A stretch of DNA of 64,000 nucleotides from Candidatus Bathyarchaeota archaeon (GTDB lineage Archaea > Thermoproteota > Bathyarchaeia > Bathyarchaeales > Bathycorpusculaceae): the NCBI GenBank assembly GCA_963833575.1, contig CAWHXY010000004.1, positions 384,001 to 448,000 of the forward strand. The letters are read 5' to 3'. Both the position numbers and the translations under genes were made by a program. The notes under the pieces are model-generated. The model saw only the letters and a program-made list of their open reading frames with translations. It was not told the DNA's origin and made no database searches. Below are positions 10,068 through 30,485 of the stretch, one piece after another (the stretch's first letter is position 1; each line of letters opens with the position of its first letter).

Positions 10068-12662
10068 TTATTTTCTATTTTTGAAAATCAACTCGCCACT
10101 TTTTTCATCGACTATAATTTCCGTGTTCTTGTCGACTTTTTCTTGCAAGATCATTTTTGATAATTCGTTTAGCAAGTTTTTTTGAATAACGCGTTTTATT
10201 GGTCTAGCTCCAAACTGAGGGTCAAATCCGACATTCGCAATAAAATCAACGGCTTTTTTGGTTATTGTAAGTTTGATGTTGGTTTTTTCGAGCATTTTTT
10301 GAACGTTTTTTAGTTGAAGTTCTACTATTTTTCTTACTTCTTCTCGTATTAACGATTGGAACATTATTATTTCGTCAATTCGGTTAAGGAATTCTGGCTT
10401 AATGCTTCTTTTCAGCAAATCGAAGACTTGAGTTCGTGTTTGGTTTATTATTTCTTCGCGGTTTTCTTCATTCATTTTTTCTAGGTTTTCTTGGATTATG
10501 TGAGATCCGATGTTTGAGGTCATGATGATTATGGTATTTTTGAAATCTACGGTTCGACCTTTATTATCTGTTAGTCTGCCATCATCAAGTACTTGGAGCA
10601 GTATGTTGAAAACGTCAGGGTGTGCTTTTTCAATCTCATCGAGAAGTACAACAGAGTATGGTTTTCTTCGAACAGCTTCAGTTAGTTGTCCGCTTTCTTC
10701 ATAGCCTACGTATCCAGGAGGCGCGCCAATGAGTCTTGAAACCGTATGCCGTTCCTGATACTCAGACATGTCAATTCTGATCATGCTATTTTCATTGTTG
10801 AATAGGAATTCGGCTAACGCTTTGGCTAATTCGGTTTTTCCAACTCCTGTAGTGCCCAAGAAGATGAAAGATCCGATTGGCCGCTTGGGATCTTGTAATC
10901 CTGCACGGTTTCTCCTAATAGCATCCGCTACTGCATTTACTGCTTCATCCTGTCCGACGACTCGCATGTGAAGTTCTGTTTCTAGATTAAGCAGTTTTTG
11001 TTTTTCACTTTGGAGCATTCGACTAACAGGGATACCTGTCCAGCGAGAAACTACTTCCGCAATTTCTTCCGCATCCACTTCTTCATTTACCATGGCTGAA
11101 TCCTTCTGCAACTCTAACAGTTTCTTCTTTAGAGTTTCAATTGTTTTTTCTGCTTCTGGAATTTTGCCGTAGCGAATTTCTGCGACACGTCCAAGATCGC
11201 CATTGCGGTTTGCGCGCTCATCTTCAAACTTTAGTTGTTCGATCTCGTTCTTTTTGTTCTGAATTTGTTCAACTATATCTTTCTCAGAGTGCCATTTTGC
11301 GCGTAATTGATTGCGTTCTTCACTTAGGTTCGCGATTTCTTCATTGAGCGACTTGAGTTTCGCCTGATCTTTTTCACGTTTTATGGCTTCCCTTTCAATT
11401 TCTAGTTGGCGAATTCGGCGGTCTTTTACTTCGAGTTCTTCAGGTTCAGAATTGATTTCAAGTCGAAGTTTTGATGCAGCTTCATCAATCAAGTCTATCG
11501 CTTTATCTGGAAGGAAACGATCGGATATGTACCTTTGTGAAAGTTCAACTGCAGCAATTATTGCTTCATCCTTGATTCTGACATGGTGATATGTTTCGTA
11601 ACGTTCTTTTAGACCTCGAAGAATGGAAATAGCGTCTAACGTGTCAGGTTCATTGACCATTACTGGTTGGAACCGTCTTTCAAGGGCTTTGTCTTTTTCA
11701 AAATATTTTTGATATTCGTTTAATGTAGTGGCGCCGATTGCACGTAATTCGCCCCTTGCTAATGCTGGTTTTAATATGTTTGCTGCGTCCATTGCTCCTT
11801 CACCACCACCTGCTCCTACCAGTGTATGAATCTCGTCGATGAATAGTACTATTTCGCCTTCAGCTGAAACAACTTCTTTAACAACGCTTTTGAGTCGTTC
11901 TTCAAATTCACCCTTATATTTTGCGCCTGCAATAAGGGCGCTCATGTCTAGTGAATAAATTTGTTTTGATTTCAGATTTTCAGGAACATCTCCGTCGATT
12001 ATGCGGTGAGCTAGTCCTTCTGCAATTGCGGTTTTGCCAACGCCTGGCTCTCCGATTAGAATTGGATTATTTTTTGTTCTTCGCGATAGGATCTGGAGGA
12101 CACGTCTGATTTCCTCGTCGCGGCCAATAACTGGGTCAAGTTTGCCTTTTCTAGCCATGTCGTTTAGGTTGATTGCATATTTGTTTAAGGCGTTATAGGT
12201 TTCTTCTGCTGTTTGAGAATTAACAGTTGATCCTTTGCGAAGTTGCTTGATTGCTGTCTTTAAGTCTTTTTCGGTGACTCCATTTTCGTGAAGTAATCTT
12301 GTAGCTGAATCGTTTTGGGCCAAAATTCCTAGAAGCAGATGCTCGATGGAAATGAACTCGTCTTTGCCCTCTGAAGCTACCTCAGCGGCCTTTTGTAGGG
12401 CTCGATTAGAATTAGATGAAAGATATTGTTGTCCACCACTAACCTTAGGTAAACAATCAATCAGCTTATCAAGCTCTTTTGAAAAAACATCAAAGTTAAC
12501 ATTTAATTTTTTCAACAAATAGGGAACTACGTTTTCGTCAACCATCAATATTGCTTTCAACAGATGTGAGGGCTCAATTGATTGGTTTTGTTTTGCCGTA
12601 GCAATTTCCGTAGCTTTTTGAATTGCTTCTTGAGATTTAATGGTAAAATTATTCAAGTCCAT
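10068..12662 (-). CDS. clpB: ATP-dependent chaperone ClpB
   Basis: Two AAA+ modules ([17 protein letters not shown]), coiled-coil M domain, GARP motif. Confidence 0.97.
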
Positions 12663-13492: not shown

Positions 13493-13532
13493 GAAAACAT
13501 AAAAATCTAAAAGAAAAGGAGAAAAAGAAAAA

Positions 13533-16355
13533 ATGCAAATTAGTAAAAACAAAACACTAGGTATTACGATCGCAATATTGTTAACAATTTCAATGGGAGC
13601 TTCAATGATGCTTATACCCAACGCTATCGCACACACACCATCACAGAGCATTCAACTCTTCGCATTTATCAATGTGGCACCTAACCCTGCAGGCATAGGT
13701 CAAGCTGTAACTGTCAGCTTCTTTCTCAATGAACCACCAATGACAGCAGGCGGTCCATATGGAGACAGATTTGGTCCTTTCACGGTAAATGTTGTAAAGC
13801 CTGATGGAACCAATGAGACACTCGGACCATTTATTTCCGATGACACAGGAGGAACAAGCACTCGCTACACACCCACTCAACTTGGCACATACCAATTCCA
13901 GATGTTTTTCCCAGGAATGAAAATGACTGGATCAACTAACAACCCAGCTTCAGCTGGCGTCAGTCCCAGCAGCGGGCTCATCAGTAATACTGCTTATATT
14001 AATGACACTCTCCTACCGGCAACAAGCTCAGTAGCAACGCTTACAGTGCAACAACAGCCAGTACCATATGTCGCAGGAGCTCCGCTTCCTACATCTTATT
14101 GGCAAACCCCAATAAACGCAATGAACGTTCAGAACTGGTACGCAATTGGCGGTCCTTACCTTGGCCTCTATATTGGTTACAGTGCAGGTAAAGGTGCTTC
14201 CAACTACAATACAACAACAAACTTCAACCCATACTCTTTGGCGCCACAAACATCTCACATCATGTGGACAAGACCAATAGCATTCGGAGGCACAATCGGT
14301 GGAGATGCAGGCGGAACAACAACCTACGGCAACTACTATTCAACCTCTCAGTACGAACGCAAATATGATCCAATAGTCATCAATGGCTACCTCTACTACA
14401 CTCAATTCCCAGGAAGCTCGACTAGCCCAGTAGCTAACGTCGCAGTTGACTTATTCACTGGAAAAACAATATGGACAAACGATGCAAGCAACTATAACGG
14501 TGGCAGTCCAACACAGAACATGCTAACAACGACAGGCGTCGTTACGCCATTTACATGTGGCCAAGTACTCGATTACGTGTCACCTAACCAATACGGAGGA
14601 ATTGCTTATTTATGGACAACAGGGAATCCTGCCTGGATCACTCCAAGTGTTATGAACTTAACTGGAACGACCCTAAACATGTTTGACGCTATGACTGGTA
14701 AATACATCCTCAGCATTGTTAACGGAACAGGTTTCAGCTATGGAAACACGGTAGACGCAAGTGGAGATTTGATATCTTACTACACAAATACCACCGTTGG
14801 AACACAAACAATCTACGGCCAAATTCTGCCGGTTACTGGACCAACACCGACAAAAGTCACTAACACTGCGGGCAACTCACTCCTCGAAGCATGGAACTCA
14901 ACTCAATGTATTATGGAAGGTGCTGGCTGGTCAACTGGATCGGCTTCAGGCTGGCAATGGAGACCCGTACAAGGTTCACTAATTCCATTTTCATATGGAA
15001 TACAATCCGCATGGCAACTACCTGGCACTGTACCAGTTGGTGCATACGCAAATAATGCTACATTGCCAAACACTTGGACAATCATGGGCGTTAACAGCGG
15101 TGTAGCTATTCTTTATTCAGCAGATAACGCAGGACTCACAAACTACTTCCAAAGAGGATCCACAGTCTTTACAGGTTACGACATAAACACGGGAAACCAG
15201 CTATTCGTCCAAAATGAAACCTTCACACCTTACACTGCAGTCAACCTAGACAACTATGGCAACGTCGCCGACGGACTTTTCACCACAGTTATCAAAGAAA
15301 CTGGTCAAGTTACCGCATTCAGTGTCACGACAGGCCAGCAAGCATGGCAAACAACACTTACAGGCGACAATGGCGCACCTATCAATCCATACGATACTAT
15401 CGGCGGAATCAAAGGAAACGTTTACGGCACCAGTTTCCTACTCTTCGGTTTCGGAGGAGACGCCTGGTCTTTAAACATGGCTAATGGCAAACTTAACTGG
15501 TATACAAACACAACTAAACTCATGGGCGACGCTGGCTCTAACACCCCATATGGCGTTTGGCCTATCTGGGTACAAACAGGCATTGGCGGCGGCGGCGGAA
15601 TAGAATGGCTTGAAGTAGGACACGAATATGCACCACCATTGTTCCTTGGAGCACAACTACTGGCATTGAACACTACAACTGGACAACTAGCATGGAGTAT
15701 ACCTTCCTTCGATGTTGATGCAAACCCCGAATTAGCATACGGCATTATGACAACACTAAACGCATATGACAACCAAGTCTACGCTTACGGCCAAGGACCA
15801 AGTGCAACGACTGTTACAGCACCCAGCGTAGGCGTAACAACAGCAACACCAGTAACCATAACAGGCACAGTAATGGACGTATCTGCAGGCGCAAAGCAAG
15901 AAGCAGTAGCAGCGAACTTCCCCAACGGTCTACCAGCAGTTTCTGATGCAAGCATGAGTTCGTTTATGGCATCTGTTTACATGCAACAACCAATTTCTCA
16001 TGACATTACCGGAGTTCCAGTTACACTAAGCGTTGTTGACTCAAACGGCAATTACAGAACCATAGGCAACACTACAACCGACGCTACAGGTTCGTATGGT
16101 CTCAAATGGACACCTGACATATCTGGCTCTTACACTATCGTTGCTACATTCTCAGGATCAGGAGCATACTACGGATCAACAGCTCAAACATACCTATATG
16201 CCAGCGCAGCAACCACACCAGCACCAACAACCGCACCTCAATCAAATCTAGCAACAACAGCAGATCTAATGATATACGTAGTCGCAGCAGCAATCGCCAT
16301 AATCATCGCAATAGCCATAGTTGGCATTGTAATAGTAATGCGGCTCAAAAAATAG
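13533..16355 (+). CDS. Secreted, membrane-anchored PQQ-like beta-propeller surface protein (Bathyarchaeia-type family)
   Basis: Signal peptide, PNPAGIGQ..TLGPFISD N-domain, repeated TG..W propeller motifs, PAVSDASM..GVPVTL C-domain, C-terminal TM anchor plus basic tail. Confidence 0.85.
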   Translation: MQISKNKTLGITIAILLTISMGASMMLIPNAIAHTPSQSIQLFAFINVAPNPAGIGQAVTVSFFLNEPPMTAGGPYGDRFGPFTVNVVKPDGTNETLGPFISDDTGGTSTRYTPTQLGTYQFQMFFPGMKMTGSTNNPASAGVSPSSGLISNTAYINDTLLPATSSVATLTVQQQPVPYVAGAPLPTSYWQTPINAMNVQNWYAIGGPYLGLYIGYSAGKGASNYNTTTNFNPYSLAPQTSHIMWTRPIAFGGTIGGDAGGTTTYGNYYSTSQYERKYDPIVINGYLYYTQFPGSSTSPVANVAVDLFTGKTIWTNDASNYNGGSPTQNMLTTTGVVTPFTCGQVLDYVSPNQYGGIAYLWTTGNPAWITPSVMNLTGTTLNMFDAMTGKYILSIVNGTGFSYGNTVDASGDLISYYTNTTVGTQTIYGQILPVTGPTPTKVTNTAGNSLLEAWNSTQCIMEGAGWSTGSASGWQWRPVQGSLIPFSYGIQSAWQLPGTVPVGAYANNATLPNTWTIMGVNSGVAILYSADNAGLTNYFQRGSTVFTGYDINTGNQLFVQNETFTPYTAVNLDNYGNVADGLFTTVIKETGQVTAFSVTTGQQAWQTTLTGDNGAPINPYDTIGGIKGNVYGTSFLLFGFGGDAWSLNMANGKLNWYTNTTKLMGDAGSNTPYGVWPIWVQTGIGGGGGIEWLEVGHEYAPPLFLGAQLLALNTTTGQLAWSIPSFDVDANPELAYGIMTTLNAYDNQVYAYGQGPSATTVTAPSVGVTTATPVTITGTVMDVSAGAKQEAVAANFPNGLPAVSDASMSSFMASVYMQQPISHDITGVPVTLSVVDSNGNYRTIGNTTTDATGSYGLKWTPDISGSYTIVATFSGSGAYYGSTAQTYLYASAATTPAPTTAPQSNLATTADLMIYVVAAAIAIIIAIAIVGIVIVMRLKK

Positions 16356-16375
16356 CCAAAAGCTTCAAAACAACC

Positions 16376-16394
16376 AAACCCCTTTCCTTTTTTT
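16376..16394 (+). terminator. Pyrimidine/oligo-T terminator
   Basis: AAACCCCTTTCCTTTTTTT after stop; near-identical tract follows the paralog. Confidence 0.55.
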
Positions 16395-16667
16395 AGTTCT
16401 TAAAAAAGAAAATTCAAAATAGAGATAAATAGTCTTTGTTTAGATTCACAAGACAGCTGTAATTCGTGATAGAGTTGGCATTTGCTCTTTTTATTGTTCT
16501 CGAAGTCTAAGCAAATCTCAATTGGTCAAAAATCTTCTAATATGTCAGTACAAGCGTCTACGTCACGCTTTTATTAGGCTTATGAATAACAATGCGACGC
16601 TATTTTGCTGAGACAACAAAACAGCAGGCGACAAACGATTCTTATATTCGCAATGTTGTTTGTATTT

Positions 16668-20481: not shown

Positions 20482-20588
20482 AAGAGTTTGCTGAGGCTCT
20501 GTCCACTTTAGGAGAAAAGAACGCAAATGCAAATGCGCTATCACGATTGCTAATATCATGATTAAGCCAGAGTCCTATTCAGCCTCTT
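20482..20588 (-). ncRNA. Putative BHB-flanked antisense RNA, copy 1 (predicted 90-nt excised product)
   Basis: Minus RNA AAGAG-GCUG-AAU-AGG..CUCUG / CAGAG-CCU-CAGC-AAA-CUCUU; homologous to 29361-29475. Confidence 0.7.
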
Positions 20589-20611
20589 CTATTATGTTCT
20601 TTGTTGGGACT

Positions 20612-20632
20612 AAAAAAAAGGAATAGGGTTTT
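20612..20632 (-). terminator. Pyrimidine/oligo-T terminator of beta-propeller gene
   Basis: Minus strand AAAACCCTATTCCTTTTTTTT, similar to 16376-16394. Confidence 0.5.
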
Positions 20633-20644
20633 GATTGTGGTTGC

Positions 20645-23173
20645 TTATGCTCGTTTTCTGAGCATTAGCACCATTACCATGCCGACTATTGCTATCGCAA
20701 TGATAATTGCAACTACTGCTGGGACAAAGTACGTATCGTATGCTGAAGTGTTATTCTGGACTATTGGTTGAGATGTTGCTGCTGGTGCATTTTCTACGTT
20801 TATGGCAGTTTCAGCTGTTGATCCATAATATGAATTGGAGCCTTCGAAATTAGTAGAGACTGTGTATTGTCCTGGGACACTTGGAGTGAAAGTAAAGCTG
20901 TAGTAGCCGTTTGCATCGCTTGTTGCTGTACCAACTGTGTAAGTATTGTTGTTGGGGTCGAGAACACTGATTGTAACGGGTACTCCTGTGGCGTTAGTTG
21001 GTCGTGGATACTGCATATAGACATATTGCATCCATTCTGTTTGACTTGCGTCAGAGACAGCGGGTACACCTAGTGGGAACCGCGCAGCGACATCATATGT
21101 TTTGGTGCCTGGGGCTATATCAGTAACATACCCTTGCACCATTACTTTATCGCCGTTTATTGATATTGTCGGATCTGCTTGAACTGTTGTTTCAGTTGCG
21201 CCTTTTCCAAATGCATATATACGGTTGTCGTATCCTGCGTTGAGTCCTGCAATTACTCCGTCACCGATAACTGGCGTTCCGCCCCACCAACTGTCAAACC
21301 AACTGCAGGTGTATATTACCTGACCGCTTGTTGCGTTGAGGCAGGTCATATATGCACCTTTAGCTTGTAGGTTGGGGTGGTGTGTTGCGTAGGACAAGTA
21401 GAGTTTTCCGTCAGTAGCGAACCAGAACACTGTCGGCCAATTGTTGCTCCACAAGACTTGAGCATAGTAGTCTGTACAGTTGTAGGTCCATAATCTTTGG
21501 CCAGTGTGGATATTGTAGGCAATTGTCATTCCGCTCTGGCGTTCGCTGTAGAAGATGCCATATGCGATCATGGGGCCGTACCATTTGTCATAGTACGCAA
21601 GGTATGGTTCTTGGTCGGTTTGCCATAAGTAAGCACCCGTGTCTAAACTAAAGCCGTAGAATCTTAGACTTTCTCTGCAAGATATAATGAATACACGATC
21701 AGTGAAGCTCACATCACTCCATACCCAAGTTCCTCCGGTAAAATCTGATGGTACTGTCCAAGTGTTATTGAAGATCAGTTGTCCAGCGGTCCCTACCTTT
21801 GTGCTTATAGCCCATGAAGTAATTGTTGGTCCGGTTGCACCTGGGAATGCGGATGATGTTGATCCAAGTACGCAATCGTCAAATTGAGCATTGCAAACAG
21901 CTCCGGGCAAACCAAGGGGTATCGAAACGTTATAATCATAACCTTGGCTTGCGTCTATTATGCTTCCGATTGGAGTCCAACTGCCATCACCGACTGACCC
22001 CGTAAGCTGTGGGTTGATTGCTCTGCTTGAGTTCCATTCAGTCAACCTACCATTTGTAGTGTCAACGGTGTATCTGTAGATTACGCCATCTGGTCCATAG
22101 TAGTTGTAGTCTGGATTTCCCGCAGGCACGTTTATTAGTTGATATAGCCAGCGTCCAGTAAGAGGGTCATACGCATTCCAAGTATAGGATAATGTTTGCC
22201 CGAATGCACCGGTTACAGGTGTCGAAGTGAATAAGTATGCGAAAGTGCCGTCAAGGTTGAATCCTTTCCAGTGGAAGACTTGGCCAAAGGATAGGCGTGT
22301 GTTGTTCCAGTTCTTTTCCCAAAGTTGTTCTCCAGTTTTAAGGTTTATAGCTACAACTGTTTGTTCAGATATTGGTGCTCCGGTTGAATCATATCTGTTG
22401 AAGTACAATACGCCGTTGATTACTATTGTGTTTAAGAATTTGCCTACGTATGCATCGCCCATCTCCATTCCTCCTCCTTCAGCGGTAATGTTGCCGCCTG
22501 CCAATCCTCCTTCAGCGTATTGATAAGTCCATAGTACGTGAGCGGTTTCAGGTGCACCTTCGTTACCGGGTATGTACTTATCATCTGGGGGCATTGTGTA
22601 ACTTCCTATGGCTCTTAGCCAGTCACCGGTCAATGGAGCCCATTGTTCGAATTGGGCGTTTATTGGACGGTTCCAGTATTCAGTTGGCAGTGGGAAAGCT
22701 GGAAAATAAGCTATTGGGTTTTGCTGTACTACTAGGTAAGTTATTGGACTGTCACTGGCGGCGTATGGTATGGAGCCAACTCCTACGAAGGGAATTGCCA
22801 TGTTTTGTGCTGGGAAGTGGGTTTGGAATTTGTATGTGCCGACCATTGTTGGAACATAAATTGAGCCTGTCCCCCCTGTTGCGTCAGTACTAAATGGGCC
22901 TAGGGTTTCAGTGGTGTTGTCAGGTTTTGTTACTGTTACAGTCAATCCTGTCCATTTAAAATAGGTTCCAGCTGTGGGTTCTGATATTCCGATGTGGAGA
23001 AGGACTTCTTGGCCAACGCCGACTGGATTTGGGGTAGTTCCGAGAAACGCATATGTTTTTTTAGGAGTTGCTGTTGTTGTCTGCGCATTGCTTGTTGGAT
23101 ATGCTGCAATTAGAGAAACTGCAAATGCAAGTATAATAAATACTGCTGCGATTTGATTTATGCTTGTTTTCAT
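20645..23173 (-). CDS. Secreted PQQ-like beta-propeller surface protein (paralog of 13533-16355)
   Basis: Signal peptide, PNPVGVGQ, TLGPFSTD, PAVSDASQ..GVPVTI, C-terminal TM anchor. Confidence 0.85.
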   Translation of the reverse strand: MKTSINQIAAVFIILAFAVSLIAAYPTSNAQTTTATPKKTYAFLGTTPNPVGVGQEVLLHIGISEPTAGTYFKWTGLTVTVTKPDNTTETLGPFSTDATGGTGSIYVPTMVGTYKFQTHFPAQNMAIPFVGVGSIPYAASDSPITYLVVQQNPIAYFPAFPLPTEYWNRPINAQFEQWAPLTGDWLRAIGSYTMPPDDKYIPGNEGAPETAHVLWTYQYAEGGLAGGNITAEGGGMEMGDAYVGKFLNTIVINGVLYFNRYDSTGAPISEQTVVAINLKTGEQLWEKNWNNTRLSFGQVFHWKGFNLDGTFAYLFTSTPVTGAFGQTLSYTWNAYDPLTGRWLYQLINVPAGNPDYNYYGPDGVIYRYTVDTTNGRLTEWNSSRAINPQLTGSVGDGSWTPIGSIIDASQGYDYNVSIPLGLPGAVCNAQFDDCVLGSTSSAFPGATGPTITSWAISTKVGTAGQLIFNNTWTVPSDFTGGTWVWSDVSFTDRVFIISCRESLRFYGFSLDTGAYLWQTDQEPYLAYYDKWYGPMIAYGIFYSERQSGMTIAYNIHTGQRLWTYNCTDYYAQVLWSNNWPTVFWFATDGKLYLSYATHHPNLQAKGAYMTCLNATSGQVIYTCSWFDSWWGGTPVIGDGVIAGLNAGYDNRIYAFGKGATETTVQADPTISINGDKVMVQGYVTDIAPGTKTYDVAARFPLGVPAVSDASQTEWMQYVYMQYPRPTNATGVPVTISVLDPNNNTYTVGTATSDANGYYSFTFTPSVPGQYTVSTNFEGSNSYYGSTAETAINVENAPAATSQPIVQNNTSAYDTYFVPAVVAIIIAIAIVGMVMVLMLRKRA

Positions 23174-29360: not shown

Positions 29361-29475
29361 AGTAGGGTTTGCTGAGGCTCTGGGAGTTTTCTTTTAGGAG
29401 AAAAAGAAAAATGCAAATACCATCACGATTGCTATTGTACTTCGTGAATTTAACCAGAGCCTACTCAGCCCCACT
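29361..29475 (-). ncRNA. Putative BHB-flanked antisense RNA, copy 2 (predicted 95-nt excised product)
   Basis: Minus RNA GGG-GCUG-AGU-AGGCUCUGG / CCAGAGCCU-CAGC-AAA-CCC; TATA-like ATATTCTTAAG on minus strand at ~29509-29519. Confidence 0.72.
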
Positions 29476-29638: not shown

Positions 29639-30485
29639 ATGCTTCAAAGTGACGAAGCAACCGGAACACTAATGGATTTAGGACTTACGTATTTGCAAGC
29701 GAAAACGTACTTAAGTCTAACTAAGTTTGAAAAAGCGGAAGCCAATAAAATTGCGAAAATTTCGGATATTGCTCGACAAGACAGCTATAGAATAATGGCA
29801 ACACTTGAAAACCTAGGTCTTGTAGAAAAAATAATAGCAAAACCGATTTCATACAAAGCTACGCCTCTGAAAGAAGGCTCCTTAATGTTGCTACAAAAGA
29901 AAACTAAGGAGCACAGGATATTACAAAAGAAAACAAAATCACTTTTAGATGGTGACCAGAAAAGAAATCTTCTAATCGCTCATGAAGAAAACACACAATT
30001 CACAATTACTTCTGAAAGGAAACTTTTTGTGAAAAGGCTAGAAAAATCATTTGAAGAAGCTAAAACCTGTGAGAAGGTTTTTTCCAGCGGCAGGTTTACA
30101 TTTCACTTTGTTTCATTTTTTCCAAATTCTCAAATTGGCATTGAGGAAGGGTGCAAAAATTCGAATAATTACTGAAGCCACAGAATTCACCTCAATAAGC
30201 AAAAAAATAGAAATATTAGAGAAAAATCCTTTTTTCAAAATCAAATTTGCTTCTTCACCCATTAATTTTGGAATAATACTTTTTGATAACAAACAAGTGA
30301 ATATGTGCATTTCTAATAGTAGCCATGCAGAGGTTCCGAGTTTAGGCACCAATAATCAACAATGTGTAGAGGCAGCCAAAATGATGTTTGAAGTTATGTG
30401 GAATAATGATCAAGAAAGAAATATTAGAAATCTGGAAACTCTGCCTCAAATTGAGGAATTACATGAGAGAACTATTCAGCGCTAG
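29639..30485 (+). pseudogene. TrmB family regulator, frameshifted (or sequencing error)
   Basis: N-terminal TrmB HTH (LGLTYLQAKTY..LGLVEK) in one frame, C-terminal domain in another; shift at T-run ~30078-30083. Confidence 0.75.

Follow-up and report, generated by a model that had tools for sequence, protein, structure and literature searches.

The genome of a Candidatus Bathyarchaeota archaeon (GenBank assembly GCA_963833575.1) holds 28 copies of a short structured element whose loop is complementary to the translation-initiation regions of one family of surface-protein genes, a complementarity that exceeds background and, in exact words and over the anti-initiation segment, is specific to the family. 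Two of these copies had been recognised in a stretch of 64,000 nt (contig CAWHXY010000004.1, positions 384,001 to 448,000; hereafter the window, to which all positions without a contig prefix refer), where an original prediction read them as bulge-helix-bulge RNAs of the minus strand, antisense to the start of the surface-protein gene at 13533. The element is a fixed 3' module of this gene family, with canonical bulge-helix-bulge geometry on one strand only and a genus-wide distribution. Its best reading, tentative and somewhat short of an even chance, is that of a circular antisense RNA acting in trans. As a whole, the original interpretation is partly supported.

Complementarity between the loops and the start sites of the gene family

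The proposed target site spans 13517-13540 of the plus strand and reads AGGAGAAAAAGAAAAAATGCAAAT: a Shine-Dalgarno (SD) sequence, AGGAG (13517-13521), followed by an ATG at 13533 and the next five bases, CAA AT. This ATG opens a 940-aa open reading frame (ORF; 13533-16355, plus strand) whose product carries a signal peptide (MQISKNK..., MQISKNKTLGITIAILLTISMGASMM...), a match to PQQ_2/BamB-like beta-propellers and a C-terminal hydrophobic membrane helix with a basic tail. The gene, called gene 13533 below, is one of about 31 paralogous surface-protein genes of this genome defined by a signal peptide, a beta-propeller and a C-terminal anchor.

Two minus-strand copies of the element, copy 1 at 20484-20586 and copy 2 at 29365-29472, resemble this site in their loops. 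In copy 2, read in sense, the SD occupies 29396-29400 and the ATG 29411-29413; the strings and coordinates first described are exact, 29396-29418 differing from 13517-13540 by a single A, fewer in copy 2. The two words said to be shared by copy 1 are likewise present, AGGAGAAAAG at 20510-20519 and AAATGCAAAT at 20525-20534. A second matching segment, in the signal-peptide codons I-T-I-A-I of gene 13533 (ATTACGATCGCAAT, 13563-13576, plus strand), agrees with ATCACGATTGCTAT of copy 2 (29422-29435) at 11 of 14 positions, a count that we reproduced, and recurs in other 5' ends of the family. Elsewhere in the genome, the target site is identical over 25 nt with type-A loops: four other copies (C4:760068, C4:745038, C4:177633 and C7:64058) match the start region of gene 13533 over 25 nt, with a BLAST E value of 3e-07 each in 2.75 Mb, and one more over 23 nt. 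This match between start and loop is far beyond chance.

Read in sense, the loops resemble the 5' ends of the family, with TTTAGGAGAAAA(A)GAAAAATGCAAAT, a gap of about 22 nt relative to the genes, and signal-peptide codons similar to ATCACGATTGCTAT. The loop is therefore an inverted and internally shortened copy of a family 5' end. Among 94 distinct copies aligned from other genomes, the best-kept loop positions are TTTCTCCT, the anti-SD, and ATTTGCATTT, the anti-start. The anti-start is often displayed in a hairpin loop whose stems differ by paired changes (GAGCA/TGCTC, GCGCA/TGCGC, GAGAG/CTCTC, AAGAAA/TTTCTT); the loop of copy 1 carries an anti-SD and displays the anti-start TTTGCATT in a hairpin loop closed by the GCGCA/TGCGC stem.

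The specificity of the match was assessed on 2555 genes from a crude ORF caller, the 31 family starts being fixed by their signal peptides. With the longest exact word shared between a start window (-28 to +20) and any of the 28 loops as score, words of 13 nt or longer were obtained for 16 of the 31 family starts and for 11 of the 2521 genes outside the family; the remaining 2510 non-family genes have no word longer than 12 nt. The family supplies nine of the ten best genes, with gene 13533 first at 25 nt. The highest-ranking gene outside the family lies at C1:5522-6103 on the minus strand, its start region sharing 17 nt (AAGGAGAAAAGAAAAATGAAAAT-like) with a loop.

A duplex test restricted to the 34-nt anti-initiation segment and to windows from -22 to +14 gave a similar picture. 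Taking the best over the 28 loops, gene 13533 ranks first of 2552 genes at -34.3 kcal/mol, and the family contributes six of the top 10, seven of the top 20 and 14 of the top 50; five of the seven paralogs with an MQ-type start fall within the top 25. With single loops, gene 13533 comes third for copy 2 and 16th for copy 1. The exact-word and duplex tests score sequence and energy only, accessibility lying outside their scope. Both the exact-word and the restricted duplex rankings bear out the expectation that the top partners of the loops would be starts of family paralogs, those of MQ type near the top.

A bulge-helix-bulge on one strand

The geometry of the element was compared with that of the tRNA-Arg(CCG) intron of the same genome, arranged as stem-CTCC-GGA-helix ... 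helix-GGAG-TTA-stem, in which each 3-nt bulge stands 3' of its 4-nt helix strand and the ARAGORN splice sites follow the second bulge base. By this reference, the element forms a canonical 3-4-3 bulge-helix-bulge, in which a 4-bp helix stands between two 3-nt bulges, one per strand, with a further helix on either side; this hBHBh' motif is the shape that the archaeal splicing endonuclease takes as substrate. The element has it only on the strand of its host gene, which is the strand antisense to AGGAG...ATG and the minus strand for copies 1 and 2. The strand named in the original prediction is thus the right one. Copy 1 has the arms GAG-GCTG-AAT-AGGACTCTGG ... ACAGAGCCT-CAGC-AAA-CTC and copy 2 the arms GGG-GCTG-AGT-AGGCTCTGG ... 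CCAGAGCCT-CAGC-AAA-CCC; the splice rule of the tRNA-Arg intron predicts excised pieces of 90 nt (20488-20577) and 95 nt (29369-29463), respectively.

A covariance model built from 27 copies was used to align 100 matches from other genomes, which gave the 94 distinct copies mentioned above. Pairing reaches 98.4% in the central 4-bp helix, 96.7% in the inner 9-bp helix and 84.1% in the outer 3-bp helix, values that lean towards structure, the alignment being fitted to the covariance model and the copies being related. Pairs changed on both sides number 13, against 7.3 in shuffles, and none of 500 shuffles reaches the observed values; in controls with slid partners, pairing falls to 27-51%. Of the 94 copies, 92 have AAA as their 3' bulge and 79 have AGA or AGT as their 5' bulge. 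Beyond the outer helix, the flanks pair with their own partner only slightly better than with mismatched ones (-3.3 versus -2.6 kcal/mol, p about 0.01).

Wobble pairs give a further indication of strand, independent of the geometry, as G·U pairs are valid only on the host strand and A·C pairs only on the other. In the inner helix the ratio of G·U to A·C is 40:12 among relatives and 15:3 in this genome, in favour of the strand originally proposed. The ratio is reversed in the outer helix (1:22), most of the A·C excess there probably falling on the outermost position, a poorly paired one with 29 of 92 cells unpaired. In 23 of the 28 copies the host strand gives the more stable fold, its U-richness being itself a help to stability; copy 2 is among the five exceptions, with -44.4 kcal/mol for the sense strand and -38.6 for the host strand.

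These observations bear on the idea that the sense strand is the functional one, the copies being decayed paralog 5' ends, tiny genes or start-site decoys. The ribosome-binding site, ATG and signal-peptide-like codons of the loop would fit such a role, as would the stability of the sense fold in copy 2. We consider it very improbable all the same: canonical geometry, the G·U bias and the fold energies of most copies all point to the other strand, the sense ORFs range from 1 to more than 59 codons with no common frame, and the SD...ATG arrangement is missing in 45 of 166 copies. A small sense-strand ORF was rejected as a candidate on the scatter of these lengths.

The enzymes that the fold would call for are encoded in the genome, which has two splicing-endonuclease paralogs and RtcB (C4:637563-638873). 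The two endonuclease paralogs are separate genes (C7:351219-351458 and C6:37209-37463, in open frames of about 200 aa), which we take to suggest a two-subunit enzyme type, tolerant of relaxed substrates.

A fixed 3' module of the surface-protein genes

An iterated profile search of the genome (2.75 Mb, 8 contigs), seeded with copies 1 and 2, returned the 28 copies, each of about 90-125 nt. Their ends are nearly invariant and read GGGGCTGAGTAGGCTCTGG and CCAGAGCCTCAGCAAACCC on the host strand. Eighteen of the copies have a paralog ORF of 825-1074 codons upstream on the same strand, its stop codon 59-74 nt away, and the ORFs of these hosted copies end in a membrane helix followed by ...LRKRP or a close variant. 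The other ten, copy 2 included, have no host gene; some retain remnants of the 3' flank and some consist of the element only.

The window illustrates these situations. The host of copy 1 is the minus-strand gene 20645-23173, which encodes an 842-aa paralog (MKTSINQ..., tail ..LRKRA); its stop codon and copy 1 are 59 nt apart, and a run of eight T (20612-20619, minus strand) stands between the two. Gene 13533 is itself directly followed by a degenerate copy, copy 3 (16424-16516, plus strand; nhmmer E value 2e-08), absent from the original prediction, 68 nt past its stop codon on the same strand; here a run of seven T (16388-16394, plus strand) lies between, within the 3'-flank motif CCTTTCCTTTTTTTAGT. 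Upstream of the orphan copy 2 there is neither a host gene nor the conserved 3' flank. In its bulge-helix-bulge orientation, copy 2 is divergent from a plus-strand gene for a 178-aa protein (29639-30175) that matches Pfam TrmB, as had been proposed. A full-length ClpB-type double AAA+ chaperone (Clp_N, AAA, AAA_2, ClpB_D2-small; 10068-12662, minus strand) adjoins gene 13533. Rfam and tRNA scans of the window returned no family and no tRNA.

The element is spread through the genus. Its 3' arm, taken as an 18-mer with up to 2 mismatches, was found in 20 of 24 other genomes of the same genus and in two of 16 genomes from other genera of the order (G040 with seven matches, G031 with one), the reversed pattern giving 0-1 hits per genome. 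An exact scan of public species genomes for a 19-mer of the arm returned at least 113 stretches; among the 80 listed, eight are bacterial, about the number expected by chance, and the rest belong to metagenome-assembled genomes of Bathyarchaeota/Bathyarchaeia. Together with this genome, the loci of relatives gave 166 distinct copies; for 98 of them, an ORF of 200 codons or more on the same strand ends no further than 150 nt away, the modal gaps being 61-70 nt. Among 139 anchored copies, 100 carry an LRKRP-type tail upstream, at a fixed distance and on the same strand, and 27 have neither host tail nor T-run motif upstream.

Behind the stop codon of a host paralog come the conserved motif (A)TTTCCCCTTTTTTAGTC, then a brief A-rich segment, and then the element. 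The motif lies about 25-35 nt past the stop codon, in the window within 16356-16423 and 20587-20644, and accompanies most hosted copies (contigs C4, C6, C7 and C1). It could be a terminator of the gene, a TATA-like start signal for the element, or both. TATA-like strings also precede orphan copies, in flanks that are AT-rich, and we make no promoter claim from them. Between stop codon and element, 15-60 nt before the latter, five or more consecutive T occur in 98 of 100 hosted copies. The suggestion that the RNA derives from a 3' untranslated region (UTR) is complicated by this run.

Orphans and remnants were also observed. Three orphan copies with near-identical loops (C4:745038-745158, C4:177633-177743 and C7:64058-64180), all with the 25-nt exact match to the start of gene 13533, look like a recently spread subfamily. 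Two 3' arms with one mismatch each (C4:104008-104025 and C7:458491-458508) stand alone, no 5' arm or loop being recognisable beside them; lost copies probably left them behind. An intron-containing tRNA-Ser(CGA) gene (C4:744701-744822) stands about 200 nt from the orphan copy C4:745038 and 1.4 kb from another orphan, C4:746242, and introns are present in eight or more of the 44 tRNA genes that ARAGORN predicts, some at unusual positions. The processing stem of the 16S rRNA has no arm words in common with the element, and a homology of the arms with signal-peptide codons was dropped (10 of 24 positions by eye).

Such a distribution could evoke a miniature inverted-repeat mobile DNA element, in which a transposase would bind the arms as terminal inverted repeats and the loop would be captured cargo. 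The hostless copies here and among relatives, the near-invariance of the arms over many species and the solitary arms all speak for it. A mobile element is however not expected to stand at a fixed distance after one gene family and on the strand of that family, as 100 of the 139 anchored copies do, nor to combine an arm asymmetry of exactly 3-4-3 in a single handedness with a preference for G·U over A·C on one strand, which a repeat acting at the DNA level does not predict. No target-site duplication was seen by eye in the listed flanks, and in a search of this genome no pair of arms more than 200 nt apart bounds a longer element. We regard a mobile element as decidedly unlikely. An invertible DNA switch, in which the arms would serve as recombination sites that flip the loop and its ribosome-binding site, has in its favour the inverted repeats around a segment with a ribosome-binding site and an ATG. 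It is scarcely credible, as the arms are asymmetric and the loop keeps one orientation in all 28 copies and in the 100 model matches (97 full-length, three cut by contig ends).

Co-variation of loops and starts between genera

The genome G040, from another family of the same order, offers a comparison beyond the genus. Its elements retain the arms and the position, 42-53 nt after genes ending in ...YWMLRRK and behind a T-run, and their loops contain the complement of GAAGGTGA, GAAGGAAT or GAGGA together with that of ATGAAAA. The family starts of G040 bear these same motifs, with one exact match of 22 nt. The mean best word shared by the six G040 starts is 14.0 nt with loops of their own genus and 9.3 with those of the other; for the 31 starts of the present genome the values are 13.1 and 9.1. 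All six G040 starts match G040 loops better than the loops of the present genome. AGGAGA is present in most loops (23 of 27) and starts (20 of 31) of this genome and absent from all seven loops and all six starts of G040.

With motifs specific to each genus and arms unchanged, loops and starts have changed together at least once, in a sample of one other genus. Selection for pairing, or repeated copying of starts into loops, would explain such a joint change. The co-variation across genomes that the original prediction called for is therefore seen between two genera; within the genus, it was not found, as detailed below.

A possible circular antisense RNA acting in trans and its rivals

The antisense reading can be laid out as a series of predicted steps. 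The element would be transcribed in the direction of its host gene, by read-through or from a start of its own; the G·U bias and the bias in fold stability are indirect indications of this. The splicing endonuclease would cut it in both bulges, and RtcB would close the excised piece into a circle of about 90-95 nt. This stable circular RNA would then act in trans, pairing with sister paralogs at their initiation regions and lowering their translation, the best targets being MQ-type starts and gene 13533 first among them. A broader version, in which each expressed surface-protein gene would yield from its 3' flank an endonuclease-excised circle blocking the ribosome-binding sites of its sisters, so that one or a few of some 30 paralogs would dominate, appears unlikely to us, and the mutually exclusive expression of paralogs that had been suggested is speculative.

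A number of results weigh against an antisense function. A T-run precedes nearly every hosted element; archaeal termination at such runs would stop many host transcripts before they reach it, so that transcription of the element may require read-through or a start of its own. All of the sequence similarity could come from common descent with re-copying from time to time, without any function in pairing. The sequence of the arms is nearly invariant, more than an endonuclease that reads structure should need, and ATGCAA is present in 18 of 27 loops but in just seven of 31 family starts. The gene set used for ranking is, moreover, a crude ORF call of our own making.

Specificity also depends on how much of the loop is considered. 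When eight of the 28 whole loops were paired with windows from -30 to +30, gene 13533 ranked 40th of 2552 for copy 2 and 329th for copy 1, and only 0-5 of the 31 family genes reached the top 50; many unrelated A- or purine-rich ribosome-binding regions pair better with these U-rich loops. The concern that unrelated A-rich sites might match equally well, raised with the original prediction, is thus borne out for whole loops and not in the exact-word and 34-nt tests.

Within the genus, at a finer scale, no co-variation was found, which also speaks against pairing. The loops of this genome share words of 8.9 nt on average with their own starts and of 8.6 nt with those of other genomes (p 0.40). 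The closest ortholog of gene 13533 (92% identity), in G044, has a different start region, AGGAGAAAAAAAAATGCAAATT, with which the loops found in this genome, itself 66% complete, have at most 11 nt in common. Orthologs were tracked at eight loci, the start-finding pattern failing at four (the G004, G014 and G020 loci and a broken second copy in G044), and in G044, G004 and G019 no loop follows the start region of its ortholog. The second G044 copy of the gene (G044:C30:3256-6060; 86% identity) has four in-frame stops and still carries the element behind it.

Nor do the loops prefer the start of their own host, the mean longest word being 7.9 nt for the own start and 8.07 for the others; the own start is the best match in three of 50 cases, with a median rank of 22 of 50. 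This result bears most directly on a clamp in cis, by which the element, in a read-through transcript, would pair with the ribosome-binding site of its own mRNA and hold translation back until the endonuclease removes it. For 18 of the 28 copies, element and start region do belong to one gene and share its strand, and family starts in general are complementary to the loops. Yet, besides this lack of preference, on which pairing with the own start was rejected, orphan copies exist, a T-run separates gene and element, and the loop of copy 1 does not match the start region of its host, AAAGGAATGTAAAACATGAAA, a difference already pointed out and with which our sequence comparison agrees. A cis clamp is improbable.

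The main rival to the trans-acting antisense RNA is a structured 3' module with another role, in processing, stability or termination, perhaps still cut, whose loop would be a relic and its complementarity of no regulatory use. The loop would have arisen long ago as an inverted copy of a 5' end from the family, with occasional renewal through gene conversion. We hold this to be possible, though doubtful. It would account for arms far more conserved than the loop and for a similarity of the kind that homology predicts, including the signal-peptide-codon segment, which an anti-initiation RNA would not need. The missing co-variation within the genus, the ATGCAA bias of the loops regardless of the starts of their hosts and the unspecific energies of whole-loop duplexes fit it equally. 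A relic, on the other hand, does not readily explain why the anti-SD and the anti-start are the best-kept positions inside the loop, nor why the stem of the anti-start hairpin varies by paired changes. The joint difference of loops and starts between two genera, with unchanged arms, requires selection or repeated directed copying.

Even without an antisense role, the element stands as a new conserved RNA structure, one to include in RNA family libraries and to look for in metatranscriptomes. It forms a family with dozens of copies per genome and hundreds across the genus, each with a precise predicted cut site and circular product, and comes with a concrete hypothesis as to its target. Should the antisense reading be true, the enzymes of tRNA splicing would also make regulatory RNAs, and a first handle would be gained on the control of the surface-protein repertoire in an abundant, uncultured archaeal group. 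The broader version, if true, would amount to RNA-based surface variation in the Bathyarchaeia of peat and sediment and to the first regulatory circular RNA from the tRNA-splicing machinery.

Comparison with known systems

A full-text search of the literature, supplementary files with possible lists of circular RNAs lying outside it, returned no paper on a repeated bulge-helix-bulge element or on any such element in Bathyarchaeia. Several known systems nevertheless share some of its aspects. Archaeal miniature inverted-repeat elements are likewise short, multi-copy and intergenic, with inverted ends and some orphans. The present element differs from them by its fixed position and strand beside one gene family, its exact 3-4-3 asymmetry and its strand-biased G·U pairs, as well as by the lack of a target duplication by eye and of an autonomous partner in this genome.

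The RNA-257 family of Sulfolobus solfataricus consists of transposon-derived paralogous antisense RNAs that target a 3' UTR. It resembles our element as a repeated family of archaeal non-coding RNAs with antisense pairing. The target proposed here is instead a start site, and no transposon partner was found in this genome.

Antisense small RNAs (sRNAs) acting in trans over a ribosome-binding site include bacterial sRNAs derived from 3' UTRs and sRNA162 of Methanosarcina. The action proposed for the element is the same, with pairing over the SD and the start codon and recognition bases displayed in hairpin loops. To our knowledge, none of these sRNAs is released by an endonuclease, is circular, or forms a multi-copy family attached to its own target paralogs.

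In some Euryarchaeota, the intron of tRNA-Trp holds a C/D box guide RNA that directs 2'-O-methylation of its own tRNA. As with this intron, an RNA would be freed at a bulge-helix-bulge and would act by base pairing, both being proposed in the case of the element. No C/D boxes were seen in the element by eye, and the window has no Rfam family match.

The closest parallels lie among bulge-helix-bulge substrates other than tRNA and rRNA. The intron of the cbf5 mRNA in Crenarchaeota and a 46-nt intron in the 5' UTR of Haloferax volcanii HVO_1309 are the only such substrates of the splicing endonuclease named in the consulted part of one paper (PMC7714728). As described there, they share with the element a canonical bulge-helix-bulge in or beside a protein-coding transcript and an excised piece expected to be circular, and the enzymes of that system, the splicing endonuclease and an RtcB-type ligase, are also encoded in the present genome. 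These introns are single-copy, located in a coding region or a 5' UTR, and that part of the paper assigns no function to the excised RNA. The element, in contrast, occurs in 28 copies per genome, follows the stop codons of paralogs, has a predicted cleavage and carries a loop antisense to the starts of the very family that hosts it.

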